Below, one piece after another: positions 2,416-51,317 of a DNA stretch of 64,000 nt. The position numbers and the translations under genes are program-made. Numbering within the stretch: the stretch's first letter is position 1; every line of letters starts with the position of its first letter. The notes below the pieces were generated by a model, which saw nothing but the letters and a program-made list of their open reading frames with translations, did not search any database and was not told where the DNA came from. This stretch comes from Acetobacteraceae bacterium (GTDB taxonomy: Bacteria > Pseudomonadota > Alphaproteobacteria > Acetobacterales > Acetobacteraceae). The stretch covers positions 1,060,557 through 1,124,556 of the forward strand of contig OZ251994.1 of NCBI GenBank assembly GCA_965246925.1, read 5' to 3'.

Positions 2416-3027
2416 ATGTTGAAGGGCGCCGGCACCGCCGCCTTGCTGGCCGGGACGGCCGGGTATGTGAACGCGGTGGCCTATCTCGGCCTGCACGCCT
2501 TCGTGGCGCCCATGACCGGCACGGTGATCGCCGCCGGCTTCGCCCTGGCGGACGCCGATTGGACCGAGGCCGGGCACGGGTTGCTGGTCGCCGCCGCTTT
2601 CACCCTAGGCGTGATCCTGGCCCGGCTGCTCCGCCGCTTGGGCCGCGGCCCGGCGCCCTGCTGGCTGTTGTCGGCCGCGCTGCTAGCCGCCTCCGCGTTC
2701 CGCCCGCTGGACGGTTTGGTGTCGCTTATCCCGATCGCCGCCGCGGTCGGTTGCCTGAACGGGTCCGAGACGCGGTTCGGCACCGTGGTGCTCAACACCA
2801 CCTTCATCACTGGCAACTTGGAGCGCATCGGCGAGGCCCTGGCCGACCGGGGCTTCAAGGGCCGCCGCGCACAGCTGACGATGATCGCCTGCATCCTCCT
2901 GGCCTATCTGGCCGGCGCCACGGCCGGCGCCCGGGCGGCGCACGTCCTGACCTGGCCCCTCCTGGTGCCGGCCGCGGTGCTGTTAGCGGCAGGAATGGTC
3001 ACAACCTTGCGGCTTCGTCCGAACTGA
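2416..3027 (+). CDS. YoaK/DUF1275 family membrane protein
   Basis: 203-aa hydrophobic ORF with GYVNAVAYLGL...APMTGT, resembling the DUF1275 N-terminal signature. Confidence 0.7.
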   Translation: MLKGAGTAALLAGTAGYVNAVAYLGLHAFVAPMTGTVIAAGFALADADWTEAGHGLLVAAAFTLGVILARLLRRLGRGPAPCWLLSAALLAASAFRPLDGLVSLIPIAAAVGCLNGSETRFGTVVLNTTFITGNLERIGEALADRGFKGRRAQLTMIACILLAYLAGATAGARAAHVLTWPLLVPAAVLLAAGMVTTLRLRPN

Positions 3028-3058: not shown

Positions 3059-3850
3059 ATGAGCCTGAATGCCTTGAAGCGCGGGCCGTTGCCGCAGGAC
3101 GTCGCGTCTGCCTACCAAGTACTGGACGGCATGACCGGCTCGCGCGCCGCCACATTGGACCTGATTAACGATCTGCGCTGGCCGGGACTTGCGATGTCGG
3201 GCGCAGGAGCCCTACGCCGCCGTCCCATCCGCTTCGCCCAGGCCGCGACCGGCACGATGAGCGATGTTCTGCCAACCTTCCGGGGCCTGACGATCCCCAA
3301 GGGCGCCGTACTTATAGAAGGCGTCATCGTGACGGCCGCGATCGTGTTGACGGAGATCGACAACGCGCGAGAACGAGCCGCAGTCAATGAGGTGATCCAG
3401 CGCTACGGGCTCAATCGTAGTTTGGCCGCCGACATGCTGGCCGCCCGCGCTTACGTATGGACCGTTAATTATGGCCCCTGGAAGAACTGGGCAATCCCCT
3501 ACTCCGGTCCGGCCAATACGCAGGCAGCCGAAAGCGTCATGCGGTATGAGCAGTCGCACCCGGGAACGGTGGGTTTAGCGGTTTCGGGCCGAAGCCGCGA
3601 AGCTGACGACGTTCTAACAGTGCTTCTAGAGGACGCGGTGCCAGGAATTACCTGTAATGGAGCCGCTCGAGCGCACCTCAGCCGTCAACCCGGCACTAAG
3701 CACATCATCGTCCAGGGCACGAGCAATCCTCGGGTTGCAAGCAATGCAGCTATGGGTAGCACACCATTTAATACCGTTCGGCGTCGTTGCGTCGCTCTCT
3801 GTTCCCGTACAACAAGCGATTGCGATTTCCGGTTGGGAAATGGACTCTGA
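3059..3850 (+). CDS. Hypothetical protein, probably the N-terminal part of the downstream AHH toxin (frame conflict)
   Basis: ATG at 3059 follows a G-rich SD. No domain recognised. The last ~65 codons overlap the AHH ORF in another frame and look non-protein-like (RRRCVALCSRTTSDCDF), so the true reading frame probably leaves this ORF between ~3630 and ~3740. Confidence 0.45.
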   Translation: MSLNALKRGPLPQDVASAYQVLDGMTGSRAATLDLINDLRWPGLAMSGAGALRRRPIRFAQAATGTMSDVLPTFRGLTIPKGAVLIEGVIVTAAIVLTEIDNARERAAVNEVIQRYGLNRSLAADMLAARAYVWTVNYGPWKNWAIPYSGPANTQAAESVMRYEQSHPGTVGLAVSGRSREADDVLTVLLEDAVPGITCNGAARAHLSRQPGTKHIIVQGTSNPRVASNAAMGSTPFNTVRRRCVALCSRTTSDCDFRLGNGL

Positions 3851-4094
3851 TGAAAACCTGATTGCACTGCCGGCAAATCAACAGGCTTGGCTTAACCAGC
3901 CATACCGCCCTCGCCGGCCATTTCAGTTGGGACCTCATCCCGTTTATGACGTTCTCACCCGCAATTCCTTGGCTCCCGTGATCGCGGCGGCCGGAATCCT
4001 GCCTGGCCCGGCTCTTCGCCCTCTACTGCGTGCAACAGAGACATCAATGCGAAGGCTAATTGAAAGCGGGACCCTTAACCCGCGACTACGATGA
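3657..4094 (+). CDS. AHH-family (HNH/EndoVII-fold) nuclease toxin domain protein
   Basis: WVAHHLIPF ... DENLIALP ... LGPHPVYD occur in the order expected for the AHH toxin nuclease signature. This frame is open only from 3630 (stops at 3615 and 3627). The stop overlaps the next gene's start. Confidence 0.7.
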   Translation: MEPLERTSAVNPALSTSSSRARAILGLQAMQLWVAHHLIPFGVVASLSVPVQQAIAISGWEMDSDENLIALPANQQAWLNQPYRPRRPFQLGPHPVYDVLTRNSLAPVIAAAGILPGPALRPLLRATETSMRRLIESGTLNPRLR

Positions 4095-4798
4095 GCGGAT
4101 CGAAACTTTGGGAGGTGCTTCCTCCCACTACAGCAATCCCGACTCTCTCGCGCGTGTTCGATGTTGATAGCGAAGGTCATGCGGCTGTTGACCTGCTCAA
4201 CTATGACGACCTTCTCTTAAACTGGTTCCAGGTCGAGAACGGAATTCCGGATCATGAGACTTGGGATCAAGAGACTATGAGATTTCGCACTGACCCTACC
4301 CACATTTTGCAGGTGCAAGACCCCGATTTTGATCTAGACTATTTTTCGATCCGAAATACCTACGCATCTGCCCATCTGCGAGAGGTTTTTGCGCTCGGAC
4401 CTGATCAGGTTATGTATCACGAGATCGATACTAGACATTGTGCAGCGAAGGCAAAGGCAAAGGACTATCAGACCTTCCTTCCTCGGATCGTAGCGAACCC
4501 ATTTGACCCTTCAAGGATGCCAGGGCGCGTGCGTTCAGTTAGGCAAGAGAACGGCTCGCTAAAAGATGAATGGATGCTGGAGCCGCTTACTATCGATACG
4601 AGCGTCTCGCCTTTCTACTTCAGGCCGGACTTCATCCCCCCTGCACCGCTGTTCCGAACGATAGTTTTCGGCTTCGTGCTGGCAACAGAGGAGTTCGCCG
4701 ACCGTGTGACCCGTGCTGGAGTGACCGGCATCGGTTTCCGGGAAGTCGAAGGCGAGCGTGCCTCAAAGGAAGTTACCTACCGCGAGCCTTTGCCATGA
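4091..4798 (+). CDS. Putative cognate immunity protein (Imm11/DUF1629-like)
   Basis: ATGA start/stop overlap with the AHH ORF (4091-4094). Acidic 235-aa cytoplasmic protein. The C-terminal LFRTIVFGFVLATEEFADRVTRAGVTGIGFREV resembles the conserved tail of Imm11/DUF1629 proteins (recalled, not searched). Confidence 0.55.
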   Translation: MSGSKLWEVLPPTTAIPTLSRVFDVDSEGHAAVDLLNYDDLLLNWFQVENGIPDHETWDQETMRFRTDPTHILQVQDPDFDLDYFSIRNTYASAHLREVFALGPDQVMYHEIDTRHCAAKAKAKDYQTFLPRIVANPFDPSRMPGRVRSVRQENGSLKDEWMLEPLTIDTSVSPFYFRPDFIPPAPLFRTIVFGFVLATEEFADRVTRAGVTGIGFREVEGERASKEVTYREPLP

Positions 4799-4811
4799 GA
4801 ATCGGACGGCA

Positions 4812-5408
4812 ATGACAGTATTAAGGAAATTAAAACTGGGCGCTCGGCCGTGGCCTGTACGTCTTGCCGCGGTCATGGCATTTGCCTTCTATACACATTC
4901 AGGCTCTGCGGCCGAGGCCGTTGACCCTATACTGGCCGTAACCGGTGGTTGTAGTCCGAAATACAGCCGCTACGTGACCGCGATCAATCACCACATGCAG
5001 AGTGCGATAGAAACGCCTCTCGTTTGTAATCGGGCGGTCGTCACTCAATCGCCTGATGGACGCGTCACCTTCCGGTTCAAGAACAGCGGCGCTCAGGACC
5101 GTAACGTGGCAGCCTTCGTGGGGTTCGGGCCTACCGGCTTCCGGTTGAATGCCGTCGAGGAGGGAGTGATCTTGCTTGACATCGATCAGTTCACCTTGCC
5201 GGATACCGAAACCTTCTCGCCAGCAGGATTCGGCAACTGCAAACTGACCTTCGGCGGCGGCCAATTGCTTGATCTCTGGTGTGCGGCGAAGCTGCTCGAA
5301 GGCACGCTGATCAGATCGATGACTGTCACATTCGACATCGTCCCCGGCGCGTCCGACGTCCCGCCAGCCGCGGGAGCGCCCCGCGTCCCGATCAAAGGAC
5401 ATCCGTAG
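4812..5408 (+). CDS. Secreted hypothetical protein
   Basis: The internal ATG at 4812 gives MTVLRKLKLGARPWPVRLAAVMAFAFYTHSGSAAEA, a plausible Sec signal peptide. Four Cys in the mature part. No family recognised. Confidence 0.5.
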   Translation: MTVLRKLKLGARPWPVRLAAVMAFAFYTHSGSAAEAVDPILAVTGGCSPKYSRYVTAINHHMQSAIETPLVCNRAVVTQSPDGRVTFRFKNSGAQDRNVAAFVGFGPTGFRLNAVEEGVILLDIDQFTLPDTETFSPAGFGNCKLTFGGGQLLDLWCAAKLLEGTLIRSMTVTFDIVPGASDVPPAAGAPRVPIKGHP

Positions 5409-5438
5409 GGCGGATCAGCGCAGCGCCATCCGCCCTAC
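5405..5438. repeat. REP-like palindromic element / hairpin between convergent genes
   Basis: GTAGGGCGGAT-cagcgcagcgcc-ATCCGCCCTAC forms an 11-bp perfect stem. It shares the ...GCGCCATCC(R)CC core with the elements at 13401-13483. Confidence 0.5.
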
Positions 5439-5448
5439 CCTGGACGGG

Positions 5449-5943
5449 TCAGAAGCTGCCGATGAAATCCCGCTTGCCCACGTCGACGCCATTATGCCGC
5501 AGGATGGCGTAGGCTGCCGTCGCGTGGAAATGCAGGTTCGGCAGCACGAAATGCAGCAGATACGCTTGGCCCTTGAAGTGCATCTCCTGCCCGGCGATCT
5601 TCAGCACGATCTCACGCTCTTCCGACCCATCGATCTGCGCCGGCGTCAGCGTCTTGATGAAATCGATCGTGCTGGCCAGCCGCGCCTTCAGCTCCGGGAT
5701 CGTCGTCTCGGTGTCGGCGTGCTTCGGCGCCTCCACCCCCGCCAGCCGCGCGCAACCGCCCTTGGCGAAGTCCGCCGCGATCTGCACCTGGCGCTGGCAC
5801 GCGAACATCGTGGGATACAGCCGGGCGGTGAGCAGGATGGCCGGGTCGAATTTATGCGTCTCCGCATGCGCCGCCGCCTTGTCCAGCACGCCCTGCAGCG
5901 CACCCAGCACCTGCAGACAGGACGGCACGGCAACCTGGAACAT
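5449..5943 (-). CDS. DUF1993 domain-containing protein
   Basis: MFQVAVPSCLQVLGALQGVLDKAAAHAE... matches the usual DUF1993 N-terminus. ATG at 5943 is preferred over the TTG at 5952, which overlaps the argG stop. Confidence 0.75.
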   Translation of the reverse strand: MFQVAVPSCLQVLGALQGVLDKAAAHAETHKFDPAILLTARLYPTMFACQRQVQIAADFAKGGCARLAGVEAPKHADTETTIPELKARLASTIDFIKTLTPAQIDGSEEREIVLKIAGQEMHFKGQAYLLHFVLPNLHFHATAAYAILRHNGVDVGKRDFIGSF

Positions 5944-5948
5944 GGAAA

Positions 5949-7175
5949 TCAAAGCGAACCCCCCTTACGGCCGATCGCAGCGCCCAAACGGAGGCGCAGC
6001 GCATTCAGCTTGATGAAACCCTGCGCGTCGAACTGGTCATACGCGCCCTGATCGTCCTCGAACGTGACGGTCTTGCTCGAATAAAGGCTATGCGGGCTGT
6101 CCCGCCCGACGCAGCTCACGTTACCCTTATACAGCTTCATGCGCACCTCCCCGGTGACGCTCGCCTGGCTCGCGTCGATCGCAGCCTGCAGCATCCGGCG
6201 CTCCGGGCTGAACCAGAACCCGTTATAGATCAGCGCGGCGTAGCGCGGCATCAGATCGTCCTTCAAATGCGCCGCCTCCCGGTCCAGGGTGATGCTCTCG
6301 ATCGCCCGGTGCGCCGCGAGCCAGATCGTGCCGCCCGGCGTCTCATACACGCCGCGGGACTTCATCCCGACGTAGCGGTTCTCCACCAAATCCAGCCGGC
6401 CGATGCCGTTATCATGGCCGAGCTGGTTCAGCGTCGAGAGCAGAGACGCCGGGCTGAGCCGGACGCCGTCGATGGACACGGGGTCCCCCTGCTCGAACCC
6501 CACGCGGATCACCGTCGCGCGGTCCGGCGCGTCCTCGGGCCGGATGGTGCGCTGATACACGAACTCGGGCGCCTCTTCGGCCGGGTCCTCGAGCACCTTG
6601 CCCTCGCTCGAGCTGTGCAGGAGGTTGGCGTCCACGCTGAACGGCGCCTCCCCCATCTTGTCGCGGCTGACGGGGATCTGGTTCTGCTCGGCGAATTCCA
6701 GCAGGCGGGTGCGGCTGGTGAGGTCCCATTCGCGCCAGGGCGAGATCACCTTGATATCGGGGCGGAGCGCGTAATAGGCGATCTCGAACCGGACCTGGTC
6801 GTTGCCCTTGCCGGTGGCCCCGTGCGCCACGGCGTCCGCACCCACCATCTCGGCGATCTCGATCTGCCGCTGAGCAATCAAGGGCCGGGCGATGCTGGTG
6901 CCCAGTAAGTATTGGCCTTCATACACGGTGTTGGCGCGGAACATCGGGAAGACGAAGTCGCGCACGAAGGTCTCACGCAGGTCATCGACGAAGATCTCCT
7001 TCACGCCGAACATCTCGGCCTTGCGCCGCGCCGGCTCCAGTTCTTCGCCCTGACCGAGGTCGGCGGTGAACGTCACGACCTCGCACTGGTAGTTGGTCTG
7101 CAGCCACCGGAGGATCACGCTGGTATCGAGCCCGCCGGAATACGCCAGCACGACCTTCTTCACGTCCTTCTGCAT
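5949..7175 (-). CDS. argG: Argininosuccinate synthase
   Basis: 408 aa. [18 protein letters not shown]-binding motif and full-length similarity to type-I ArgG. Confidence 0.97.
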
Positions 7176-9646: not shown

Positions 9647-11124
<1,478 letters not shown>

Positions 11125-11184
11125 AGCACTTACCGACCAGGCGGAATCGCCTGGACGGTAGTAGTGCCCGCCAAACTTGAAAAA

Positions 11185-11235
11185 CTAGAGCCCAAGCCGA
11201 CCCACTTCGGTCGGATTGGGCTCTAGCCTTTTTCC
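11185..11235. terminator. Bidirectional rho-independent terminator
   Basis: CTAGAGCCCAAGCCGACC-CACTTC-GGTCGGATTGGGCTCTAG is a long hairpin flanked by GAAAAA on one side and CCTTTTT on the other. It sits between convergent genes and contains the stop codon of the minus-strand gene. Confidence 0.6.
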
Positions 11236-12335
11236 GGCTCGGCCGCGTTGATCAGCGTCGGCGGCTTGATGGGCGGCAGGTCCCGCACCTGGTCCGGCAG
11301 CGGCGCGCGAAGGCGGCGATACGGTGGCAGGCTCTGCGCCCGTCCGGTCAGCAACGCCTGCTCGATGGCCAGGATGACCCGGACATCCAGCAACCCCTCC
11401 TCACCATCCGGCTCCGGGTCGAGCCCGTTCAGGATGCAGTCCGAGAAATAATGCGTCTCACCGCCGAACTGGTCGGTGGCGGGAAAGTCGCTCTTGGTCT
11501 TGCTGCTACCGACACGAAGTTGTTGCGCGAGCGCGCCGCGGAGCGTGAACCCCGGGTTCACCAGCAGATCGGCGTCCGTGCCGACGACGCGGTATTCGTT
11601 GATGGCATTCAAGCCATAGGCCACGGTGAACTGCGCCATCCGGTCCCCGGGAAAGCGGAGCATGACGCTGACGGTATCATCGAAATCCCAGCCCTGCGTG
11701 CGCAGGCCCCAAGCCATTACCTCCACCGGCTCGGCGGCGAACAGCATGCGGGCGGCGTTGATGGGGTAGGGCCCCATATCAGCCACCGGCCCAGCCCAGA
11801 AGCCATGCTGCGCCCGGTGATTGCTGTCGGACACGTGCTGCGTGAACGTGGAGGTGAACAGCCGGGCGTGGCCCAGATGCTGGCCCCGCACGAGGCGCAG
11901 CGCTTCGAGCGTCGCAGGCTCGAAGTGCAAGCGATAGGCGATCATCAGCTTGGCGCCGGTCTTGTCCGCCGCGGCCTGGATGGCCTTGCAATCCGCCTCG
12001 CTCACCTCCATCGGCTTTTCCAACAGAACATGCAGCCCGGCCTCGAGCGCGGGCACGGCGAACTCGCGGTGGCGCCAGTTGGGGGTGGCGATATAGACGG
12101 CGTCGAACCCGCCGCTGTCGATCGCGGCCTGCCAGGCGTCGTAGTGATATAGACGCTGGATGCCATAGCGGCGTCCGAGTGCCTCGGCCTTGTCGCTGTC
12201 GCTGGTGACTAGCGCGGTCATCTCGGAATTGCCGGTGTGGTCAACGCCGGGCATGAAGGCGGCTTGGCTGATCCAGCCGGCACCGACCACGGCGTAGCGC
12301 ACTTTCCGGCCCTCGACCTTTACTGCCATCATCAC
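11223..12335 (-). CDS. Gfo/Idh/MocA family oxidoreductase
   Basis: VRYAVVGAGWISQ Rossmann motif, EKP motif (LLEKPM), 370 aa. Confidence 0.85.
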   Translation of the reverse strand: MMMAVKVEGRKVRYAVVGAGWISQAAFMPGVDHTGNSEMTALVTSDSDKAEALGRRYGIQRLYHYDAWQAAIDSGGFDAVYIATPNWRHREFAVPALEAGLHVLLEKPMEVSEADCKAIQAAADKTGAKLMIAYRLHFEPATLEALRLVRGQHLGHARLFTSTFTQHVSDSNHRAQHGFWAGPVADMGPYPINAARMLFAAEPVEVMAWGLRTQGWDFDDTVSVMLRFPGDRMAQFTVAYGLNAINEYRVVGTDADLLVNPGFTLRGALAQQLRVGSSKTKSDFPATDQFGGETHYFSDCILNGLDPEPDGEEGLLDVRVILAIEQALLTGRAQSLPPYRRLRAPLPDQVRDLPPIKPPTLINAAEPEKG

Positions 12336-15840: not shown

Positions 15841-17040
15841 ATGCCTGAGGCCTTCATCTGCGACGCCATCCGCACCCCCATCGGACGCTACGCCGGCGCA
15901 TTGAAGGACGTCCGGGCCGATGATCTTGCGGCAAACCCCATCCGGGCCCTCATCGCCCGCAATCCGGGCGTGGATTGGGAGCAGCTGGACGACACCATCA
16001 TGGGCTGCGCCAATCAGGCCGGAGAGGATAACCGCAACGTGGCGCGAATGGCGACGCTTCTGGCCGGCCTTCCCCTCACCGTGCCCGGCGCCACCGTCAA
16101 CCGGCTCTGCGGCTCCGGCCTCGACGCCATCGGCACCGCCGCTCGTGCCATCCGCGCCGGCGAGGCCCATCTCATGCTCGCCGGCGGCGTGGAGAGCATG
16201 ACCCGCGCCCCGTTCGTCATGGCGAAATCGACCGAGGCCTTCGCCCGGCAGGCCGAGATCCACGACACCACCATCGGCTGGCGCTTCGTGAACGGCCTCA
16301 TGAAGACCATGTACGGCACCGACAGCATGCCTGAAACCGGCGAGAACGTGGCCGAGCAGTTCCAGATCACCCGCGCCGCCCAGGACGCGTTCGCGCTGCG
16401 CAGCCAAGAGAAATGCGCCGCCGCTCAAGCATCCGGCTACCTCGCCGCCGAGATCGCCCCCGTCACCATCAAGGGCCGCCGCGGCGACACGGTGGTGGAC
16501 CGGGACGAACATCCCCGCGAAACGACGCTGGAGGCCCTGGCCGCGCTCAAGACGCCGTTCCGCACGCCGGGCACGGTGACGGCCGGGAACGCGTCGGGCG
16601 TGAATGACGGCGCGGCCATGCTGATCCTCGCCAGCGAAGACGCCGCCCGGCGCCACGGCCTCACGCCCCGCGCCCGGGTGGTCGGCATGGCGACGGCCGG
16701 GGTGGCGCCGCGCATCATGGGCGTGGGCCCGGTGCCCGCCGTGCAGAAGCTGCTGGCCCAGACCGGCCTCACGCTGGGCGAGGTCGACGTCATCGAGCTG
16801 AACGAGGCCTTCGCCGCCCAGGCGCTGGCCGTGTTGCGGCAGCTCGGCGTGGCCGACGACGACCCGCGCGTGAACCCGCACGGCGGGGCGATCGCGCTGG
16901 GCCACCCGCTCGGCGCATCCGGCGCCCGCCTCGCCATGACGGCGGTGCACGCGCTCCAAACCACCGGCGGCCGCCGCGCCATTATCACGATGTGCATCGG
17001 CGTCGGTCAGGGCATCGCAGCGTTGGTGGAGCGGGTCTAA
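15841..17040 (+). CDS. pcaF: 3-oxoadipyl-CoA / acetyl-CoA C-acyltransferase (thiolase)
   Basis: MPEAFICDAIRTPIGRYAGALKDVRADDLAA is typical of PcaF/PaaJ. NRLCGSGL active-site Cys and C-terminal CIGVGQG are present. AAGGAG SD precedes ATG 15841. PcaF versus PaaJ cannot be resolved here. Confidence 0.9.
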   Translation: MPEAFICDAIRTPIGRYAGALKDVRADDLAANPIRALIARNPGVDWEQLDDTIMGCANQAGEDNRNVARMATLLAGLPLTVPGATVNRLCGSGLDAIGTAARAIRAGEAHLMLAGGVESMTRAPFVMAKSTEAFARQAEIHDTTIGWRFVNGLMKTMYGTDSMPETGENVAEQFQITRAAQDAFALRSQEKCAAAQASGYLAAEIAPVTIKGRRGDTVVDRDEHPRETTLEALAALKTPFRTPGTVTAGNASGVNDGAAMLILASEDAARRHGLTPRARVVGMATAGVAPRIMGVGPVPAVQKLLAQTGLTLGEVDVIELNEAFAAQALAVLRQLGVADDDPRVNPHGGAIALGHPLGASGARLAMTAVHALQTTGGRRAIITMCIGVGQGIAALVERV

Positions 17041-20000
17041 ACCGCAAACGCAACCCGCCCCTCCGCCTGTCCGAACGCCACGAAATGCAGCAGCGGATCC
17101 ACTCCAGCCGCCCGGATGTCAGCGTAGGCGGCGAGGTATTTGCTGGTGCTGAATTGCGCCGACGGATCGCGGCCTTCTCGCCAGCCGTTGGCCTCGTAGT
17201 GCAGCAGCGGATCGATGTGCGCGGCCGCCACGTCCGGGTTGTGGCTTAGGTAATAAGCCGTGTTGAAATACGCGTCCGGGTTCAGCCCGCGCTGCCAGCC
17301 CACCGCATCGTAGCTCGCCGCCGCCTGCTGCTGCGCCGCCACGCCGGTCGGAATGAGGGTGGCACCCAACTGGGGGTCGTAATACGCCGCCTGCACCAGC
17401 GGATCCGCCGCGGCGGACGGGCCAGACAGGAACGCGGCGCGGCCCTCGTTCTGGCCGCTTTGCACGTAATGCAATAGCGGATCGATCCCCGCCGCCGCCA
17501 CGTCCGGATTGGCGGCGAAGTATTTGGCGTCGGAGAACAGAAGGCTCGGGTCCCGCGCCTCCCGCCAGCCATTCGCCTCGAAATGCAGCAGCGGATCGAT
17601 ATGGGCGGCGGCGATGTCCGGGTTCTGGGTCAGATAGAAATTCGTGTCGAACAGCGCGTCGGGATTGCGCCCCTCCATCCACCCGCTGCTGAGGTAGTGC
17701 GTCGCCGCGTCCACTCCGGCCGCCTTCACGTCCGGGTTGTGCGCGTAATAATACGCTGCATCCACCAGCGGATCGGTCAGCGTGCCGACCGCGAACGCCG
17801 CCCGCCCCTCGGCCTTGCCGCTCTGCACATAATGCAACAACGGATCGATCCCCGCCGCCTTCACATCCGGGTTGGCGGCCAGGTAGTCGCTGGTGCTGAA
17901 CGAAGCCGACGGATCACGCCCGGCCTGCCAGCCGCCATTCTCGAAATCCTGCAGCGGGTTCACGCCGGGGGTGATGGGATTGTGCGCCAGGTAGTAGCCG
18001 GTGCTGAACAGGGCGCTGGGATCCCGGCCTTCCTTCCAGCCCAGGGTGACGTAGTGCTGGTAGGGGTCGATGCCGGCGGCGGCGATGTCCGGGTTGTGTG
18101 CGAGGTAGTACACCGGGTCGAACAATGGATCGCCCGCCACCAGCTTCTGCCCGCCCGCGCCATCGGCGACCAGGGTGACGCTGACGCCGGGGGCGAGGCC
18201 GGCCAGCGTCTCCGTCCCCACGACCGAGGCGCCCTGGCGCACCGTGATGACGCTGCCGGCCAGTGAAGCCGCGAGCCCGGCGCCGAAATCCAGCGCGTCC
18301 CCGATCGCGAAGCCGGTGACCTGTCCATTGCCGGCCAGCGCATTGACTCTGATGACCGAGTTCAACCCGCTGAACTGCAGCGTCTGCCCGCCCAATCCGC
18401 CCAGCACCAGCGTGCCGCCGTTGGCGCCCAAGGTGCCGGTGCCGCTCACGCTATCGACCGACAAGGTGCCGCCCGTGGCGGTAACGGCGCCATTGACTCG
18501 CACGGACGCGTGCACCGTGCCGGCGCCACCAAGGGTCGCGCCCTGGTCCACAGTCAGCAGCCCTGCCGTCCCGGCGCTGGCGCCGATCACGCCGGTGCCC
18601 GTCCCATCGACCGTCAATGACGACCCGGCGAAGCTGGACAGGTTGGCCGCCCGGAACAGGCCGCCGGACATGACGGAGAGCGTGCCCGTGCCGCCCGCCG
18701 CCAGCCCCGATCCGGGATTGCCGCCGCCCAGCACGGCGAGCCCCGCCGCATTCAACATAGACCCGGCGCCGGATACGGTCACGGTGCCCACGCCCCCGGC
18801 CAACGAGCCGACATTCAGCGCCGATTCCGTGTCGGCATACGCGGCGCCGGAGGTGACGGTTCCGCCCGCCAGCACCGACAGCGTGCCGGTCCCGGCGCGC
18901 CCGACCGACAGCCAGTCTCCACTGGTGGTGAGGGATGAGCCGGCGCCGGTCACAGTGACGGTGCCGCTGGTGCCGGCATCGTTGCCCAGCACCGCGCCGG
19001 GCGTGGCCAGCACGTGCAATCCGCCCGCCTTTAGCGTGCCGCCGCCCTGGATGGTGACGGTGCCGGTGCCGCCGGGCCGGTCGACGCCGGAACCAACGAG
19101 CAGCTGTGCGTCCACCAGGACACGGCCCGCCGTGTCCACCGTGACGGAGCCGGAGGTGCCGCGCCGCCCTACGTCTAGATTGCCGAGGGTGTGCAGCATC
19201 GCGCCATTGCTGACCCGCGCCGTGCCCGTTCCGCCGAACAGCAGCGGGCTGTTGGGCATACCGTTTGCGCCCAGCGTGGGGGTGCCGTCGCCGATGGTGA
19301 CGGCGTATTCCAAGGCCGTGCCGCCGGCCCCCTGCCCGCCCGTGAAGGTGCCTCCCTGATCCACGATCAGCGTCCCTGTCCCGGCACGCCCGACGAAAAC
19401 GTAGCCTGACGCCGTATAGCTGGAACCCATGCCCGAAACCGTCAGCAACCCGGCGGCGCCGGCAGTTCGCCCGATGGCCAGCGCCGCGTTGACCGCGCTA
19501 TCGGCCGACGACGACCTAACCGTCCCCCCGCCCGACACCGTCGCGCTGCCGGTGCCGCTATAGCCGATCGCCACGCCGTTGGCACCGGAATCGAGGGTCG
19601 CGCCCGCGCCGTTGACCGTAAGGATCCCAGACGTACTGGCTGAGTTTCCCACCACGACATAGTATTTGCTGGTGTCACCGGCCGCAGTGAGCGCGACGTT
19701 GCCGCCATCCTGCACGCTCAGGCTCCCGGCGCCGTTCGGGTTGGTGGTGCCGCTTCCCAGGAAGAGCTGGCCGCCGAGATTAAGCCGGCTGCCGACGCCG
19801 GCCACCAGCACGGAACCGCTATCGCCTTGATTGCCCGCCACCAGCGTGTTTTCCAGCGTCGCTACCCCGCCCAGCAACACGCTGAAGCTGCCGGAGCCGC
19901 CAAACGCGGCAACACCGTTGATGGTGCCGCCCGCGCCGATAGTGTTCTGGTCCGTGGCCACGACGGAGGTCTGCGTCAGGACGCCGGCGTTGCTGACCGT

Positions 20001-20696
20001 GACCGATCCGGACGCGCCCGACGCCCGCCCGGCGTAGAAGCCGCCGCTCAGCAGGAGCTTACCGCCATTGACCGCGACCGACCCGGTCCCGCCCCGCCCG
20101 ACGGCGAGCGCCGCAACGCCGCCATTGGTTGGATCGGGCGTGCCCAGCCGCGCCGTGCCGCCTGCCAGCACGGAGAGGGTGCCGTTGCCAGTGTTCCCGA
20201 CCGCGGCCGCGTTGCCGTTAAGATCCAATAACGATCCCGTGCCCAGCACGGTGACTGAGCCAGTGGAGTTGGTGGAGCCGATGGCCAGGATGTAGTTCTG
20301 GTTCTGGGCCGCGATAGTGGTGTTGAACACGCCGCCCGCGCCGATGTTCAGCGTGCCGAGGCTCGTGCCATTGCCCGCGGCATTGCCCACCAGCGCCGTC
20401 CCGCCCGTCAGCGTCAGGGTGCCGCCGCTTACGACGTTGAGCAGGGTCTGTATGGTAAAGCCGCCGGCCGAAAGCTGACCGGGCCCGAACGTCCACGCCG
20501 TGCTCGGCCCGGCCAGGAACTGCGCCTGCGCGACGGTGGCGGTGCCGGTGATGGCCGCGCCTGACGTGGCAGAGAACTGCGCCGTGTCGGCGATGCCGGG
20601 CACGGTGGTCTCGGGCGATTCAGGAGTGGTGAGATTGGTCCAATCGGCCGCAAGAGCCAGGTCCGTCCGCACGCTGGTGAACTTATAGACGGCCAT
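17037..20696 (-). CDS. Large repeat protein: beta-helix-like Gly/Thr/Ala-rich N-terminal ~855 aa plus nine C-terminal ~37-aa repeats
   Basis: 1219-aa ORF. Periodic segments such as GSVTVxGxGSxLxxxG...GTLSVLAGG. The C-terminus carries repeated YLxxNPDVAAAGIDPLLHYxxxGWxEGRDPS units. No N-terminal signal peptide and no C-terminal beta-barrel. Confidence 0.8.
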   Translation of the reverse strand: MAVYKFTSVRTDLALAADWTNLTTPESPETTVPGIADTAQFSATSGAAITGTATVAQAQFLAGPSTAWTFGPGQLSAGGFTIQTLLNVVSGGTLTLTGGTALVGNAAGNGTSLGTLNIGAGGVFNTTIAAQNQNYILAIGSTNSTGSVTVLGTGSLLDLNGNAAAVGNTGNGTLSVLAGGTARLGTPDPTNGGVAALAVGRGGTGSVAVNGGKLLLSGGFYAGRASGASGSVTVSNAGVLTQTSVVATDQNTIGAGGTINGVAAFGGSGSFSVLLGGVATLENTLVAGNQGDSGSVLVAGVGSRLNLGGQLFLGSGTTNPNGAGSLSVQDGGNVALTAAGDTSKYYVVVGNSASTSGILTVNGAGATLDSGANGVAIGYSGTGSATVSGGGTVRSSSADSAVNAALAIGRTAGAAGLLTVSGMGSSYTASGYVFVGRAGTGTLIVDQGGTFTGGQGAGGTALEYAVTIGDGTPTLGANGMPNSPLLFGGTGTARVSNGAMLHTLGNLDVGRRGTSGSVTVDTAGRVLVDAQLLVGSGVDRPGGTGTVTIQGGGTLKAGGLHVLATPGAVLGNDAGTSGTVTVTGAGSSLTTSGDWLSVGRAGTGTLSVLAGGTVTSGAAYADTESALNVGSLAGGVGTVTVSGAGSMLNAAGLAVLGGGNPGSGLAAGGTGTLSVMSGGLFRAANLSSFAGSSLTVDGTGTGVIGASAGTAGLLTVDQGATLGGAGTVHASVRVNGAVTATGGTLSVDSVSGTGTLGANGGTLVLGGLGGQTLQFSGLNSVIRVNALAGNGQVTGFAIGDALDFGAGLAASLAGSVITVRQGASVVGTETLAGLAPGVSVTLVADGAGGQKLVAGDPLFDPVYYLAHNPDIAAAGIDPYQHYVTLGWKEGRDPSALFSTGYYLAHNPITPGVNPLQDFENGGWQAGRDPSASFSTSDYLAANPDVKAAGIDPLLHYVQSGKAEGRAAFAVGTLTDPLVDAAYYYAHNPDVKAAGVDAATHYLSSGWMEGRNPDALFDTNFYLTQNPDIAAAHIDPLLHFEANGWREARDPSLLFSDAKYFAANPDVAAAGIDPLLHYVQSGQNEGRAAFLSGPSAAADPLVQAAYYDPQLGATLIPTGVAAQQQAAASYDAVGWQRGLNPDAYFNTAYYLSHNPDVAAAHIDPLLHYEANGWREGRDPSAQFSTSKYLAAYADIRAAGVDPLLHFVAFGQAEGRVAFAV
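17040..18131 (-). repeat. Coding tandem repeats: 3 x (3 x ~37 aa) module
   Basis: The last 364 aa form three ~120-aa super-repeats, each made of three NPD(V/I)AAAG(I/V)DPLLH(Y/F)...G(W)xEGR units. The third unit of each set ends in (A/N)EGR(A/V)AF. Confidence 0.75.
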
Positions 20697-23826: not shown

Positions 23827-24717
23827 TCACGCGATTCGAGTGCGGCGGAGCAGGTCGAGAAAAAAGTTGGCCGCCGGGGTTAGCACCAGGTCCGCCCGCT
23901 TGATCACCACGATCGGCGGAGCCTCCAGCTCTTCGTGCACCTTGATCGTGGACAGCATACCGCGCGCCAGCGGGAACTCGCTCCATTGCACCGGCACCAT
24001 GGACAGGAAGTCGGTGTTCAGCAGGCATGTGAGCAACGTCAGCGCCGATTGGCTGCGCAGCGCGACTCGCGGGCGCGGAAGGCCATGCTGGACGAAGACG
24101 GCGGTGATCTCCTCCTCGTCGGCCAGGGTGATGGAGTTGGTGGCCCAGCTCGCCCCGGCCAGTTGCGCTAGCGTCGTAGAGCCAGCCAACGGATGGCCGG
24201 TCCGGCACAATACGGTCCGGCGGTTGGGGCTCAGCACCTCCCGCTCCAACTCCGGTGCTACGCGGGGGCCGGGGTCCACGCCCAAGTAGAAATCGACGCT
24301 GCCATCGCGGAGGCCGGGTTCGAGCGTGGGGTAGAACCCCTCGACGATATGCAGCTTGGCCTTCGGATAACGGCGCGCGAACGGGCGAAGGGCGGAGGGC
24401 AAATAGGCGAGGTGCGCGGCGATCGACAGGCCGGCCGTCACAGTCCCGGTGGTGGCGCCGCCGAGCTGGTCCACCTCGTCCCGGGCGCGGCGCATCTCGT
24501 TCACGATGGAGGCAGCCCGGCGGACGAACAGCTCACCCAGCGGCGTCGCGACCACGCCGCGCGCCCGGCGCTCGAACAGGGACGCGCCTAGCTCGCGCTC
24601 CAGCTCCGCCAGATTCCGCGTCAGCGCCGGCTGGCTGGTGCCTAGCGCGCGCGCCGCCGCCCGGATGCTGCCCTGCCCGGCGATCGCGACCACGTCCCGC
24701 AGATGGCTGAGCTTCAT
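23827..24717 (-). CDS. LysR-family transcriptional regulator
   Basis: MKLSHLRDVVAIAGQGSIRAAARALGTSQPALTRNLAELE is the LysR HTH. The start was moved to ATG 24717. Confidence 0.9.
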   Translation of the reverse strand: MKLSHLRDVVAIAGQGSIRAAARALGTSQPALTRNLAELERELGASLFERRARGVVATPLGELFVRRAASIVNEMRRARDEVDQLGGATTGTVTAGLSIAAHLAYLPSALRPFARRYPKAKLHIVEGFYPTLEPGLRDGSVDFYLGVDPGPRVAPELEREVLSPNRRTVLCRTGHPLAGSTTLAQLAGASWATNSITLADEEEITAVFVQHGLPRPRVALRSQSALTLLTCLLNTDFLSMVPVQWSEFPLARGMLSTIKVHEELEAPPIVVIKRADLVLTPAANFFLDLLRRTRIA

Positions 24718-24727
24718 GCCCCGGAGG

Positions 24728-26230
24728 TTAGGAGATCCAGCGCCGCCGGGCCAGGGCCGAGCCGTCGATGAATTCGAAACCGCCACCGCTGTTCAGGGTA
24801 TGGAGGCGGCGGCCGGGCCAGAGCGGGCCGGCGGTCAGCACGGTTTCGACCTGCTGCGCGAACCCATCCTCGTCCAGCCGGTCCACCCGGGCGATGCCGA
24901 GCGCGGCGCCGTAGCCCTGGCTGCAGTCCTGCACCGGGCGCAGCAGCACGCCGTCCCGCACCACCATACGCCCGGCCGGGCGGGCGGAGGCGATATCGAT
25001 CAGCACCGGATTGCCGGCGTGCGCCACCCAAGGGCCGCGGAAATCGTCCGCATACCAAAGGTGCAACGTGTCGGAGTAGGCGCCGCCGTCGCGTACGGTG
25101 GCGAACATCCACCAGCGCCCGCCATGCTGGGTCAGGGTAGCGTCACTGGCGATGACGTCTTGCACGAGCGTGGCTTCCCGCACCCAGCCACCCGGGAAGG
25201 CGGTGGCGCGGAATAGGTCAATCTGCCCAGCGGCACAGCTTTCGGGGATCATCCACATCTCGCCATCGGCGGGGAACACGAACGGGTAAGAGAGGTGCCC
25301 CGGCTGCTCGAGCACCATCTCCGGGCGGCCTTCCGGGCCGTTCTGGCCCATAACCACGGCCGAGATCACGCCTTTACCGGCCCGGTGCGGAAATTCTTCG
25401 AGGAACAGGGTGGTGCGGCCGTCATGCTCGACCGGAAAAGGGTCGGCATAGAAGCGGCGGCCGTCATCCGGCAGAGTGTGCCAGCCCGTGTCCGGATGCC
25501 GGCGCAGGTCGAACAGGTCTGGCCCGTCCAGCCTACGCCAGCCGACCTGCCAGTGGGGTGAGTCGAACCAGAGCCGGTAGCCTTGGCGCAGCACTTTGGA
25601 AACGGCACGCCGGGCGGCTGTCCGCGCGGGTGTGGCGGCTTGCCGGCCCGCGCCCGATCCAGGCACGGGCGGGGTGCGGGCGGTGCCGTCCAGCGCCGAG
25701 AGAATCAGGGTCACGGCCCGCGCCTGGTAATCCTTTAGCGCCGCCTGCACCGTGCCGCCGTATTCGGTGCCGAGCCGGCCCGCGGCGATGACCTGCTCAC
25801 CCTCACGGAGGACCGCGACGGGTGGCTGCCCGGTTAGCAGCATATCCAGGAGTCCCGAGAGGCCCGGGCGGCCATCCTCCCCATCGAGCCCCCGCCCGAA
25901 GGTGAGCCGCCATACCCGGCCCGGCCCTAGTGCTGGATCTCCGCACAAATCGATCGCAAGGTCCGGCGGGCTGGAAAGCTTCTGTAGGTATGGACTGAGA
26001 TCGGCTTTGGACGAACCTGCCGATCCGTCCAGGGCCGCATCGAAGCGGAGCAGCCACCCGGCCTGCCGTGATAGGCGGCCAGCGCCCGGGCTGATATCTG
26101 CCGTGACCGAAGTGTCGGGACGTTTAGCAAGACGTTGCAGCAGGTCCAGGTGCCAGAGTTCGGCATGGGGACCGTCGAGACGGACGGTGAGACGCACGGG
26201 TGAAATCCTCGAAGTAACGAAATGGCTCAA
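24728..26230 (-). CDS. Hypothetical protein of polysaccharide loci (C-terminal GH43-like / glucosamine-inositolphosphorylceramide-transferase-like domain suspected)
   Basis: 500 aa. The C-terminal half (YADPFPVEHDGRTTLFLEEF ... GGRWWMFAT ... LHLWYADDFRGPW) recalls a conserved bacterial family seen next to EPS genes. Assignment is from memory only. Confidence 0.6.
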   Translation of the reverse strand: MSHFVTSRISPVRLTVRLDGPHAELWHLDLLQRLAKRPDTSVTADISPGAGRLSRQAGWLLRFDAALDGSAGSSKADLSPYLQKLSSPPDLAIDLCGDPALGPGRVWRLTFGRGLDGEDGRPGLSGLLDMLLTGQPPVAVLREGEQVIAAGRLGTEYGGTVQAALKDYQARAVTLILSALDGTARTPPVPGSGAGRQAATPARTAARRAVSKVLRQGYRLWFDSPHWQVGWRRLDGPDLFDLRRHPDTGWHTLPDDGRRFYADPFPVEHDGRTTLFLEEFPHRAGKGVISAVVMGQNGPEGRPEMVLEQPGHLSYPFVFPADGEMWMIPESCAAGQIDLFRATAFPGGWVREATLVQDVIASDATLTQHGGRWWMFATVRDGGAYSDTLHLWYADDFRGPWVAHAGNPVLIDIASARPAGRMVVRDGVLLRPVQDCSQGYGAALGIARVDRLDEDGFAQQVETVLTAGPLWPGRRLHTLNSGGGFEFIDGSALARRRWIS

Positions 26231-26286
26231 GCGCGTGCAGGTATGTCACGCAAACATACATTTTATGTTAACGTAAGCCAATTAAG
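26231..26286. promoter_or_regulatory. A+T-rich divergent promoter region
   Basis: CATACATTTTATGTTAACGTAAGCCAATTAAG lies between divergent genes in an otherwise G+C-rich context. No specific boxes are claimed. Confidence 0.4.
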
Positions 26287-29857: not shown

Positions 29858-30948
29858 CGGACATCACGCACGTAGCGCGCCCGGTCTGGGGCGGGGGCGG
29901 CGGTATAGCGCTGATCGGTGCGGAGCGCGCCGAACTCCCCCATGACGAGCCGGGCGGAGGGTATGCCGTGCTTTGTGCCCCAGTCCGCGACCGCGCCCAG
30001 ATATTGCCTCAGAAAGGGGCGGTCCGGTTGCGCGGCGAAATAGACGCCCAGGACTTTCTCGGTTTCCTGCATGGCCGCGCGCCGCTCATCTGCACTTGTG
30101 CCGTGATCTTCGCTCATGCGGCGGCGGACCGAGGCCAGCGTTTGCTGCAACGACCCGGCGGAGGCTGGCCAGGGCACATTATTCAGCGCGCGATACACCG
30201 GCTCCCGCATCCAGGGCGCGCCCTGATGGCTAAACAAATAGGGCTCGTAGAAGTGGAAGGCATAGAGCAACGGCTCGAGCGGATGAAGTGGGGCCGGGTC
30301 TAGAGCGACAAGGCCGCTGGGCATGCTGCCGCAGGCGCCGGTAGCAACCAATGTCAGGCCTGGCGCGGCCCGGCGAGCGGTGGATAGTAACTGTATTTGC
30401 AGTCCGGCCCACTCCGCCGATACGCAGGCCTGCGGCGGTTCGTTCACCGGTTCCAGCGCCACGCGGGCAAGGTCAAGGCGGCCCAGTCTGGCCGCGAAAG
30501 CCTCAACCAACAGGAGGTAGGGGTTCAGAGCCGGGGCGGTATGCGCCGAATACATTCTGTCCGGCGTCCAATGATGGGTAGCCCCATTGCCGTGTAGGTT
30601 GACGATCACCGACAATCGTTCGGAAAGCGCGGACTGAACGGCCTCCATGACGTCCTGCAGCAACGCGCCACGCTTGGCTTCATCAAAGGCAAGGAATGGC
30701 CCGGGATCGACGGGGATGCGGATAAAGTCAAAGCCGGCCTGGCGCAGTCTCCGCAAATCTGCCCTGCCCGGCACGGCGCGCTGCGCCTGCCAGGGAGGCC
30801 AAGGGTAGTCTGTCCGGGGTGCCGGATATTCACGGGTGAGCGAGAACCACGGCCAGGTATTCACCCCGCGGCGGAAAGACGATCCCGTCGGTGCAGTTAG
30901 CGGCGCCGCGGCCAAGAGTTGGGCCGCGCGCCGCCGGGTTAGTCTCAA
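29725..30948 (-). CDS. Glycoside hydrolase family 5 (endoglucanase-like), exported
   Basis: Tat-like RRRAAQLL signal. GFDFIRIPV, NLHG, EPVNEP (acid/base), FHFYEP, MGEFG (nucleophile). Confidence 0.8.
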   Translation of the reverse strand: MRLTRRRAAQLLAAAPLTAPTGSSFRRGVNTWPWFSLTREYPAPRTDYPWPPWQAQRAVPGRADLRRLRQAGFDFIRIPVDPGPFLAFDEAKRGALLQDVMEAVQSALSERLSVIVNLHGNGATHHWTPDRMYSAHTAPALNPYLLLVEAFAARLGRLDLARVALEPVNEPPQACVSAEWAGLQIQLLSTARRAAPGLTLVATGACGSMPSGLVALDPAPLHPLEPLLYAFHFYEPYLFSHQGAPWMREPVYRALNNVPWPASAGSLQQTLASVRRRMSEDHGTSADERRAAMQETEKVLGVYFAAQPDRPFLRQYLGAVADWGTKHGIPSARLVMGEFGALRTDQRYTAAPAPDRARYVRDVRQMAEGFGFGWAFWNLFDGMGLMDDTTRALDPAMIEALGLRTAG

Positions 30949-33386: not shown

Positions 33387-33396
33387 TGCCGCACGC

Positions 33397-34677: not shown

Positions 34678-34680
34678 TGG

Positions 34681-51311: not shown

Positions 51312-51317
51312 AGAACC

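Follow-up and report, generated by a model that had tools for sequence, protein, structure and literature searches.

AHH nuclease toxins are known to pair with Imm11 immunity proteins: the combination is listed in PMC3482391, and PMC12077181 describes tests of it in Myxococcus. In Myxococcus xanthus, MXAN_0050 and MXAN_0049 (structure 6a4c) form a T6SS-delivered kin-discrimination pair, in which a toxin with a C-terminal AHH domain is followed by an Imm11-family gene.

Other described systems combine a polymorphic C-terminal toxin with different N-terminal parts. In the Agrobacterium Tde2-type example, a DUF4150-Ntox15 protein is accompanied by GAD-like immunity. The T6SS-effector architecture in question, consisting of a DUF4150 (PAAR-like) domain and a polymorphic C-terminal toxin, has been described (PMC8546570). 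Besides, temperate phages encode MuF polymorphic toxins, with a Phage_Mu_F N-terminus and a variable tip, and, finally, orphan or decayed toxins with a kept immunity gene are known from Rhs/CDI orphan modules and polyimmunity loci.

The locus presented here belongs to a 64-kb stretch of a contig of ~4.1 Mb, and this whole stretch is hereafter called the window. Like the Myxococcus pair, it has a C-terminal AHH domain and then an Imm11-family gene, but the toxin differs from MXAN_0050 by a different, uncatalogued N-terminal module, by the lack of any visible T6SS link and by a frameshift. Textbook polymorphic toxin-immunity cassettes are of this kind, and it is therefore no surprise to find one here. 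In our reading, the locus is probably an acquired islet with an AHH toxin/Imm11 cassette, whose toxin gene has been broken by a one-base insertion and whose immunity gene is intact. The features are the following:

3059..3655, plus strand: 5' part of the toxin gene (frame 2, 199 codons), from homology to P0002-P0005
3646..3658, plus strand: frameshift site, one base longer than in intact homologues
3656..3850, plus strand: out-of-frame tail of the 263-aa ORF (64 codons, then TGA), homologous to nothing
3657..4094, plus strand: 3' part of the toxin gene, AHH nuclease domain (frame 0, 145 codons), from family homology
4091..4798, plus strand: Imm11-family immunity gene (235 aa), from conserved pairing, Pfam and fold model
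4812..5408, plus strand: ORFan of 198 aa from ATG (216 aa from GTG 4758), from codon-position G+C
5405..5438, no strand: perfect hairpin with 11-bp arms, where the ORFan and DUF1993 genes converge
5449..5952, convergent with the ORFan: DUF1993 gene, between the islet and argG
3300..5400, no strand: low-G+C islet, from G+C and GC3 scans

The toxin gene and its two halves

The sequence-only reading saw a toxin with an unrecognised N-terminal region. Actually, the toxin is not one ORF here: 3059..3850 (frame 2) and 3657..4094 (frame 0), which overlap by 194 nt, are a single toxin gene in two frames, frameshifted and not intact as sequenced. The intact homologues P0002-P0005 (343-344 aa) are colinear with the repaired toxin, with 100% coverage, 55-61% identity and no gap at the junction, and the homology, which frame 2 carries as far as DAVPG, continues in frame 0 from EPLERTS. 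Compared with these intact homologues, a single extra base maps to 3646-3658, where the DNA alignment with loci L001 and L002 has a lone 1-nt gap in both homologues. The simplest reading of the sequence would be that the A of GTAATG has been doubled (3656/3657), and deletion of base 3656 yields a product of 344 aa, the length of P0002. In frame 0, a TAG (3627-3629) stands upstream of the frameshift, while the ATG of 3657..4094 starts 10 nt 3' of an AGGA (3643-3646). The frameshift falls exactly at the junction preceding the AHH domain. P0001, under which the 263-aa ORF is found in the database, matches only the first 199 residues of the repaired protein (58% coverage), and the match of the N-domain profile stops at residue 198. 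The frameshifted gene is either a pseudogene or a sequencing error.

The AHH signature claimed for 3657..4094 was found there as WVAHHLIP ... NLIALP ... HPVYD, and this ORF keeps every invariant column of the toxin family. In the numbering of the repaired protein, the motif residues are A234-H235-H236, N266 (NLIALP), H293 and Y296 (HPVY). When compared with the motif set [AG]HH, N, H, H, Y (PMC3482391, Table 2), 6 of the 7 residues are present; the His of the consensus LPxH, after NLIALP, is Gln here (PFQLGPHP). Gln is probably a tolerated variant, since it also occupies this position in 11 of 58 relatives, the other 47 having His. With the Pfam model PF14412 (AHH), the window copy scores 13.1 bits (E=0.096), below the gathering threshold of 22.3 bits. 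Homologues that align with it across the whole domain pass that threshold (P0003, 22.6; P0007, 25.7; P0030, 28.5; P0057, 32.5; P0080, 37.7; P0101, 42.7 bits), and scores across the relatives span 20.6-42.7 bits. Using the AHH part as query, tblastn found L002 (E 2.6e-38) and L001 (E 4.4e-32). The AF2 model of the domain has a pLDDT of 80-97, with strands at 232-236 and 267-271 followed by helices. A Foldseek search of the PDB with the whole two-domain toxin model returned nothing below E 0.7 and no HNH-fold structure, and when the profile of the toxin family was run against the PDB sequences, the matches were at chance level only. As a family member, the 3' part of the toxin is assigned to the AHH (HNH/EndoVII-type) nucleases, with DNase as its probable activity.

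The N-terminal half had been said to match nothing recognised. It has no model match in Pfam, NCBIfam, PADLOC or PHROGs, but a profile of this N-domain matched 159 representative proteins and reveals a widespread pre-toxin module. Residues 1-199 are colinear with the N-terminal 199 residues of P0002-P0005 (56-63% identity) and comprise two parts: (i) a poorly structured leader (residues 1 to ~90) with the conserved motifs RWPG and LAQAxTGTM; and (ii) a helical pre-toxin core of ~110 aa (residues ~91-199). The AF2 helices of the core lie at 93-116, 123-142, 151-166, 170-176 and 180-193 (pLDDT ~80-91), and its consensus reads ...LTAAxLLxExxxxxERAxVxxAIxRFGLDxxxAADVLAARAYVW...LPxSGPxxxRxAExxMRYERxxPGTxGLAxRG.

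Among 175 collected proteins, 89 end in an AHH tip and others in different or unrecognised tips. The core is found upstream of AHH, Col-Pyo_DNase, EndoU, Tox-REase-5, Ntox15, Colicin_E5 and Tox-ART-HYD1 tips, and downstream of Tox-PAAR-like (T6SS), Phage_Mu_F, PT-HINT or unrecognised leaders. The identifiable tips directly downstream of the core are nucleases (DNases, RNases) or an ADP-ribosyltransferase (ART). One criterion of Zhang et al. (2012) for a polymorphic toxin system is that a conserved N-terminal part is fused to C-terminal toxin domains of different kinds, and this is seen in the family.

It is tentatively suggested that the ~110-aa core might be an undescribed pre-toxin domain, independent of the delivery route and serving a shared post-delivery step. 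This step could be the passage of the tip into the cytoplasm of the target, a role like that of the cytoplasm-entry domains of CdiA-CT regions, or the core could be a processing or chaperone site. In any case, the core connects PAAR-like toxins of the T6SS, MuF toxins of phages and toxins processed by HINT, and it offers a handle on a step common to delivery routes.

The immunity gene, the conserved pair and the delivery route

The immunity gene was said to start on the stop of the toxin, and the ATGA overlap is indeed there (ATG at 4091-4093, TGA at 4092-4094); through it, the gene is predicted to be translationally coupled to the toxin. The sequence-only reading also proposed an Imm11-like tail. 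The score of the window protein itself against PF07791 (Imm11/DUF1629) does not bear this out, being 18.3 bits (E=0.0015) for a threshold of 22.1 and covering residues 173-220 only, that is, 48 C-terminal residues. The family assignment nevertheless holds, owing to homologues, pairing and the 6a4c fold. PF07791 is present in 10 of 16 database homologues of the partner, two of which are named imm11/DUF1629 by NCBI, and the partner in L006 reaches 40.4 bits over profile positions 62-193, above the threshold.

The model of the immunity protein has a pLDDT of 90.7 and a pTM of 0.86. When this model was compared with the PDB by Foldseek, rank 1 was 6a4c (MXAN_0049, the Imm11 prototype; E 7e-5, probability 1.00, 181 columns, TM 0.38/0.41), which is the sole significant PDB match, as rank 2 has an E of 0.77; yet identity over the fold match is 19%, with a TM of 0.38-0.41. 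In sequence, profile A2 matched 6a4c alone in the PDB, and weakly (E 0.27). As a family member, the partner is an Imm11-family immunity protein, which, by analogy with MXAN_0049, would neutralise the toxin by binding. Both the AHH and the Imm11 calls stand on family-level evidence, as the window's own sequences alone give no significant profile match. Taken formally, that outcome would have counted as a refutation by the standard set in the sequence-only reading. PADLOC, NCBIfam and PHROGs hold no model for either the toxin or the partner.

The pairing is conserved. In 8 other distinct loci (L001, L002, L003, L004/5, L006/7, L090, L091 and L092), the toxin gene is immediately followed by one that encodes a partner homologue of 223-235 aa. 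In three of these 8 (L001, L003 and L090) the pair is cargo of Tn7-like elements, with HTH/Peptidase_M78, deaminase, restriction-modification-like and HD genes as neighbours, and in L092 it is carried by a resolvase/MobA element. The subfamily is small (~30 clusters among 5.8 billion proteins), and no relative of the toxin was found in 2.9 million viral contigs. Across the 8 loci, it always appears as a free-standing mobile two-gene cassette, often as Tn7-like cargo and never with an adjoining secretion system, which makes its export of interest.

Concerning delivery, the earlier statement that no T6SS, T7SS, Rhs or CDI genes are nearby agrees with a Pfam scan of the 37 large ORFs of the window, where none was found. 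Likewise, no PAAR, VgrG, Hcp or adaptor is fused to the window toxin or neighbours it among those 37 ORFs, and no secretion-system genes occur within 8-10 kb of the module in the 8 other loci. Because no secretion-system gene adjoins the module, export is deduced from domain sharing only. The N-terminus of the window toxin has no trafficking domain in Pfam, NCBIfam or PHROGs (PAAR-like, MuF and PT-HINT are found in relatives only) and its residues 1-25, read directly, have no hydrophobic signal-peptide-like start.

Of the relatives of the core, just 6, all of them more distant, have a PAAR-like domain. In P0104, P0090, P0106, P0117, P0092 and P0069, a Tox-PAAR-like domain is followed by the core and a tip (e.g. 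Ntox15, ART-HYD1), and a GAD-like gene comes after P0104. The contigs of P0104 and P0101 end too close to these genes for secretion genes to be visible around them. By contrast, the window toxin has ~90 poorly structured residues in place of the PAAR-like domain, and vgrG/tap genes are found neither in its neighbourhood nor in that of its 8 closest relatives. The relative P0132 is built as a MuF toxin (Phage_Mu_F, then core, then Colicin_E5 RNase), whereas the window toxin is without MuF domain and the viral contigs are without relatives of it. Since the core stands behind PAAR-like, Phage_Mu_F and PT-HINT domains, it would point to polymorphic toxins that are exported, but not to any single route of secretion. 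The delivery route, which had been called open, is narrowed by these relatives but not settled; for the short 344-aa form of the toxin, being T6SS cargo is the leading guess.

Proposed origin of the frameshifted toxin gene

In the favoured explanation, a horizontally acquired islet (~3030-5440) would have come to lie between the DUF1275/YoaK gene and the DUF1993-argG pair, its core being a two-gene polymorphic-toxin cassette. The ancestral toxin would have been a protein of ~344 aa made up of (i) a ~90-aa leader; (ii) a ~110-aa helical pre-toxin domain; and (iii) a C-terminal AHH metal-dependent DNase. By analogy with MXAN_0050/MXAN_0049, the Imm11 protein would bind the AHH domain and block the nuclease in the producer and its kin. 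The insertion at ~3656, in the linker between pre-toxin and AHH domains, would separate the nuclease from the N-terminal half, and the full-length deliverable toxin would no longer be made. What would then be made is a truncated protein of 263 aa that ends in a junk tail, accompanied at most by a separate AHH domain of 145 aa started at the internal ATG. Presumably, the intact immunity gene would remain useful against toxin-firing kin and any residual AHH domain. The frameshift appears to be recent, given that the AHH frame is otherwise free of lesions and all invariant residues are kept.

The locus resembles the orphan and decayed toxin loci, as here too the immunity gene is intact and the toxin disabled, and the cassette is likewise foreign in composition, with a G+C step in the toxin gene upstream of the tip. 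It differs from orphan and polyimmunity loci in being a single cassette, not an array, and from 5'-truncated orphan tips in that the toxin keeps its own 5' end and start codon. A toxin gene apparently decaying with its immunity kept, and with the lesion between the delivery and killing halves, bears on the origin of orphan immunity.

The frameshift might instead be a sequencing or assembly error, in which case the organism would have an intact 344-aa AHH toxin and a fully functional toxin-immunity pair. We consider this unlikely, even if several facts fit it well: there is one lesion only, followed by 145 open codons with every invariant residue kept, the removal of one base gives the exact length of the homologues, and the immunity gene is intact and apparently translationally coupled. 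Nevertheless, the site is not a homopolymer of the kind affected by long-read indels, as GTAATG has just an AA dinucleotide, and the window is rich in long uninterrupted ORFs (up to 1219 aa), so the assembly does not seem to be indel-ridden. In polymorphic toxin systems, moreover, the decay of toxin genes beside kept immunity genes is common. A broken toxin gene is hence preferred, but its two halves could conceivably be a functional split, the free 145-aa AHH domain from ATG 3657 and Imm11 being an intracellular addiction module that stabilises the islet. That none of the full-length close homologues spanning the junction is split makes this very unlikely, as do the family-variable position of the Met codon, the lack of any sign of a lower stability of the immunity protein relative to the toxin, and the description of AHH domains as largely confined to exported polymorphic toxins (PMC3482391). 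In its favour, the ATG has a Shine-Dalgarno-like AGGA and coincides exactly with the domain boundary, the AHH frame is unbroken, and related modules reside on Tn7-like elements and a mobilisable element, where addiction would pay.

The presence of the pair in Tn7-like cargo in 3 of the 8 other loci could also suggest that this mobile-element cargo is a defence system, acting against phages or by abortive infection, instead of an interbacterial weapon. This is highly improbable, given that neither protein matches any PADLOC model, that the core is common to PAAR-like, MuF and PT-HINT toxins bearing classic exported tips, and that the tested AHH-Imm11 pairs (PMC12077181) act in kin discrimination via T6SS or outer-membrane exchange. 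Regulation of toxin production by a programmed +1 ribosomal frameshift is scarcely credible and was rejected: the AGGA upstream of the shift region recalls prfB-type +1 sites, but the site is without a slippery codon plus in-frame stop or a hungry codon, the Shine-Dalgarno-like spacing is unsuited to prfB-type stimulation, and the compared intact homologues encode the protein in one frame. The broken toxin gene beside an intact immunity gene remains the preferred reading.

Composition, borders and third ORF of the islet

The A+T-richer stretch of the sequence-only reading was recovered by windowed G+C and GC3: G+C is 0.517 at 4001-4600, the lowest stretch of the 64-kb window (mean 0.677, sd 0.041), and GC3 is 0.53-0.56 in the AHH part and the immunity gene versus 0.87-0.91 in flanking genes. 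The change takes place inside the toxin gene, at codons ~150-170, where GC3 drops from 0.75-0.8 to 0.5-0.6. Homologous modules in the 8 other loci have a GC3 of ~0.59-0.91, mostly nearer the G+C of their hosts. Horizontal acquisition, as had been suggested, is in agreement with the lowest G+C of the window, the unrelated contexts of the module elsewhere and its absence beside DUF1993-argG in L008 and L009.

As for the flanks, which had been given as YoaK and argG, yoaK is a DUF1275 protein gene, but argG does not adjoin the islet, as the DUF1993 gene is between them. For synteny, the DUF1993 protein was scanned through 185,579 species genomes, a set without the genome of the window itself. The nearest ones, L008 (a Rhodospirillales MAG, 84% nucleotide identity) and L009 (an Acetobacteraceae MAG, 79%), have only argG-DUF1993 in common with the window, the homology ending at window position 5446, and the YoaK gene is not nearby in either. 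The islet is absent from both genomes; a clean empty site between yoaK and argG is not demonstrable because synteny past DUF1993 is not conserved in them. At the islet borders, a search for flanking direct or inverted repeats gave short chance-level matches only, and the promoter/terminator scan was at background level.

The third ORF had been described as a secreted unknown after the immunity gene. An ORF with a signal-peptide-like N-terminus (MTVLRKLKLGARPWPVRLAAVMAFAFYTHSGSAAEA) is present, a putative gene whose codon-position G+C (0.60/0.50/0.66) is more in line with this frame than with the antisense ORF. It is an ORFan, with no homologue among 5.8 billion proteins (the exact look-up was also empty) and no match in Pfam, NCBIfam, PADLOC or PHROGs. 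It is no regular companion of the module, being downstream of it in none of the 8 other loci; it is inside the low-G+C islet and outside the conserved module.

The hairpin expected at the end of the block exists (dG -27.7 kcal/mol, z -3.3), but the REP-like label is unsupported, as GGGCGGAT-N(4-20)-ATCCGCCC has one occurrence in the 64-kb window. It has no U-tract. The hairpin belongs to the islet side, because nucleotide homology with L008 begins only at 5446; in L009, a different hairpin is found at the corresponding place.

Islet layout and the interrupted toxin gene

Four ORFs, all on the same strand, make up the islet; these and the flanking genes are as follows:

2416..3027, DUF1275/YoaK gene (Pfam E 4e-27), flank of the islet
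3059..3850, frame 2, same strand as the other three islet ORFs, toxin 5' ORF (263 aa)
3657..4094, frame 0, same strand as the other three, toxin 3' ORF (145 aa)
4091..4798, same strand as the other three, Imm11-type partner gene (235 aa)
4812..5408, same strand as the other three, third ORF (198 aa counted from its ATG)
5449..5952, convergent to the islet ORFs, DUF1993 gene (E 1e-56), overlapping argG
5949..7175, argG, overlapped by the DUF1993 gene

The first two islet ORFs overlap by 194 nt in differing frames and, judging from their homologues, are one gene split by a single surplus base. A conceptual fusion of 344 aa (3059..3655 joined to 3657..4094) matched 31 protein clusters in a search of 5.8 billion proteins; the four top foreign matches (P0002-P0005) are 343-344 aa long and align with 100% coverage of the fusion, 55-61% identity and an ungapped junction. 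A TAG at 3627-3629 blocks frame 0, and the homology passes from frame 2 (...DAVPG) into frame 0 (EPLERTS...), which places the lesion within 3646-3658. In a DNA alignment, the window has exactly one surplus base versus two intact homologues, the simplest reading being a duplicated A in GTAATG. With a one-base lesion and this switch in homology, the 263-aa ORF, which is on record as a called protein of a 4.1-Mb NCBI contig (P0001), therefore consists of 199 genuine and 64 out-of-frame residues.

The lesion is either recent or a sequencing error, since all 145 codons 3' of it are open (145/145) and all invariant family residues are retained. The surplus base lies outside any homopolymer and the window is elsewhere rich in long intact ORFs; a true mutation is considered the probable explanation, with sequencing error clearly the weaker candidate. 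As sequenced, the toxin would be disarmed by the frameshift. An ATG with AGGA 10 nt upstream is located exactly where the AHH part begins, so that a free putative nuclease domain could still be made.

An AHH toxin and its Imm11-type partner

The sequence-only reading had proposed an AHH nuclease toxin followed by an Imm11-like immunity gene, and this core reading holds on the basis of family homologues, recurrent pairing and a structural match. The signature WVAHHLIP...NLIALP...HPVYD is indeed present in the 145-aa ORF, and the overlap of the 235-aa gene start with the stop of that ORF (ATGA) is seen in the sequence. Taken literally, the significant profile match on which that reading had made itself depend is lacking for the window's own proteins: both score below the Pfam cut-offs, the toxin for AHH (13.1 bits; cut-off 22.3) and the partner for Imm11 (18.3 bits over the C-terminal 48 residues only; cut-off 22.1). 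Several of their homologues, however, pass these cut-offs, and this family-level evidence overrides the shortfall.

Regarding the toxin, relatives whose alignment spans the entire domain exceed the cut-off, with scores from 22.6 to 42.7 bits. The AHH motif, i.e. [AG]HH, N, H, H and Y (Zhang et al., PMC3482391), is present in the window toxin with the sole exception of a Gln in place of one His (consensus LPxH), which accounts for the low AHH score. Since 11 of 58 relatives, spread over several subclades, share this Gln, we read it as a probably tolerated variant. Foldseek gave no support for an HNH fold in the window toxin.

Regarding the partner, each of eight further distinct loci has a homologue of 223-235 aa directly 3' of its toxin gene. 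The homologue in L006 reaches an Imm11 score of 40.4 bits, and PF07791 is present in 10 of 16 database homologues. The confident model of the window partner (pLDDT 90.7, pTM 0.86) has a single significant PDB match, 6a4c (MXAN_0049; E 7e-5, prob 1.00), the next having an E of 0.77. MXAN_0049 is the experimentally characterised prototype of Imm11 and neutralises the AHH nuclease MXAN_0050 (PMC12077181). The system is of a known kind, an AHH-Imm11 polymorphic toxin-immunity cassette, of which the window holds a divergent, horizontally acquired copy.

A recurrent pre-toxin core

No model for the N-terminal half of the toxin is held in Pfam, NCBIfam, PADLOC or PHROGs. The earlier statement that this region matches nothing recognisable is nevertheless to be corrected, as its profile matched 159 proteins in an exhaustive search of 1.84 billion representatives. 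The conserved stretch is a helical core of ~110 aa (residues ~91-199; model pLDDT ~80-91). About half of the matches carry an AHH tip, and others carry: (i) Col-Pyo_DNase (P0068, P0076, P0095, P0160 and others); (ii) EndoU (P0088); (iii) Tox-REase-5 (P0056); (iv) Ntox15 (P0104); (v) Colicin_E5 (P0132); (vi) Tox-ART-HYD1 (P0069); or (vii) tips without an assigned family. Upstream of the core there are: (i) Tox-PAAR-like/DUF4150 (six proteins); (ii) Phage_Mu_F (P0132); (iii) PT-HINT (P0133); (iv) two uncharacterised leader classes, A (26 proteins) and B (14 proteins); or (v) in further matches, a short leader of ~90 aa, as in the window toxin.

Such a variety of leaders and tips argues that the window protein is, by its predicted architecture, a bona fide polymorphic toxin and its core a promiscuous pre-toxin module. 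Being common to T6SS-type, phage-type and HINT-processed toxins, the core is not diagnostic of an export route; more likely, it serves a step that all three share. Processing or cytoplasmic entry of the toxin tip is a tentative, rather doubtful candidate for that role. What is new is mainly this pre-toxin module, absent from the catalogues, and the puzzle of how a free-standing, often transposon-borne subfamily would be exported.

Neither leader class has a Pfam match. Class A (26 representatives, including P0057, P0074, P0101, P0056, P0068 and P0088) shows a conserved N-domain plus a NPDEPRDERGRWT / PRxPxGxxxGGQW motif, and class B (14 representatives, including P0095, P0135, P0140 and P0142) begins with WxYQGRQxHMWFGHGT; both may mark further delivery routes. 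The leader of the toxin family (e.g. P0009, P0012, P0018) contains one to four repeats R-[IL]-A-Q-A-G-x-G-T-[IM], a possible docking or recognition peptide; the window leader has a single one (RFAQAATGTM, residues ~55-70), and class-A proteins have a similar hydrophobic-A-[QS]-A strand 5' of the core. P0139 combines the core with an Imm11 domain (28 bits in Pfam), and P0066, by eye, has an Imm11-type domain, then a class-A leader and then the core; in both, neighbouring toxin-immunity cassettes in tandem may have been fused or read through.

Composition, mobility and surroundings

The islet had been described as less G+C-rich than its flanks, and windowed G+C places it as the lowest-G+C stretch of the whole window. 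GC3 is 0.72 in the toxin 5' part, 0.53 in the AHH part, 0.56 in the immunity gene and 0.66 in the third ORF, an ORFan, against 0.87-0.91 in the flanks. The drop inside the toxin gene (codons ~150-170) suggests, but does not prove, a mosaic origin. The module is missing beside argG-DUF1993 in the two nearest genomes (a Rhodospirillales MAG and an Acetobacteraceae MAG), but no clean empty site is found because both also lack YoaK there. In the Acetobacteraceae MAG (L009), two adjacent same-strand ORFs of 241 and 270 aa (10548..12119, minus strand), which may be two halves of one gene, lie downstream of DUF1993.

At the eight other loci, the composition of the homologous modules is mostly nearer that of the host. 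These are unrelated sites: Tn7-like (TnsA/TniB/TniQ) cargo in three, resolvase plus MobA in one, and between housekeeping genes in four. In the Tn7-like loci (L001 11157-17032; L003 1-5581; L090 4113-9001) the cassette sits in or next to TnsA-like, Mu-transposase/rve, TniB and TniQ genes, in L090 among the first genes 3' of tniQ, and its neighbours are conflict-type genes (HTH/Peptidase_M78, deaminase, Eco57I-like methylase, HD protein). As noted before, no T6SS, T7SS, Rhs or CDI genes lie nearby, with zero among 37 scanned window ORFs; likewise, none occurs within 8-10 kb of the module in any of the eight other loci (0/8).

The third ORF (4812..5408), earlier called a secreted unknown, begins with a plausible signal peptide, and its G+C pattern resembles that of coding DNA. 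It is never beside the module in other loci, and the search of 5.8 billion proteins returned no homologue of it. It is a putative gene carried as islet cargo. The hairpin at 5405-5438, stable and between convergent genes, had been termed REP-like. That label is not supported, as the hairpin is unique in the window and has no U-tract; an unrelated hairpin occupies the same position in L009, and the structure looks like a local terminator-type element rather than a demonstrated REP.

Elsewhere, the longest ORF of the window (1219 aa; 17037..20696, minus strand) has no Pfam match at E<=1e-5 and may be either a gene or an antisense artefact of G+C richness. Three tandem SPFH/Band 7 genes (49470..53377, plus strand; 613, 342 and 344 aa) precede a P-type ATPase gene (53470..55353). 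A second toxin gene, unrelated to the AHH toxin, encodes a HipA-like serine/threonine kinase (62080..63318, minus strand; HipA_C E 1.6e-46, plus Couple_hipA). Another low-G+C patch lies at 14.8-15.9 kb (14800-15900), and two more (26.1-26.8 kb and 31.6-32.7 kb) fall within a polysaccharide gene cluster (~24700..35800) with GINT1_N-like, Wzz/GNVR, GH5 cellulase and GT4 glycosyltransferase genes.
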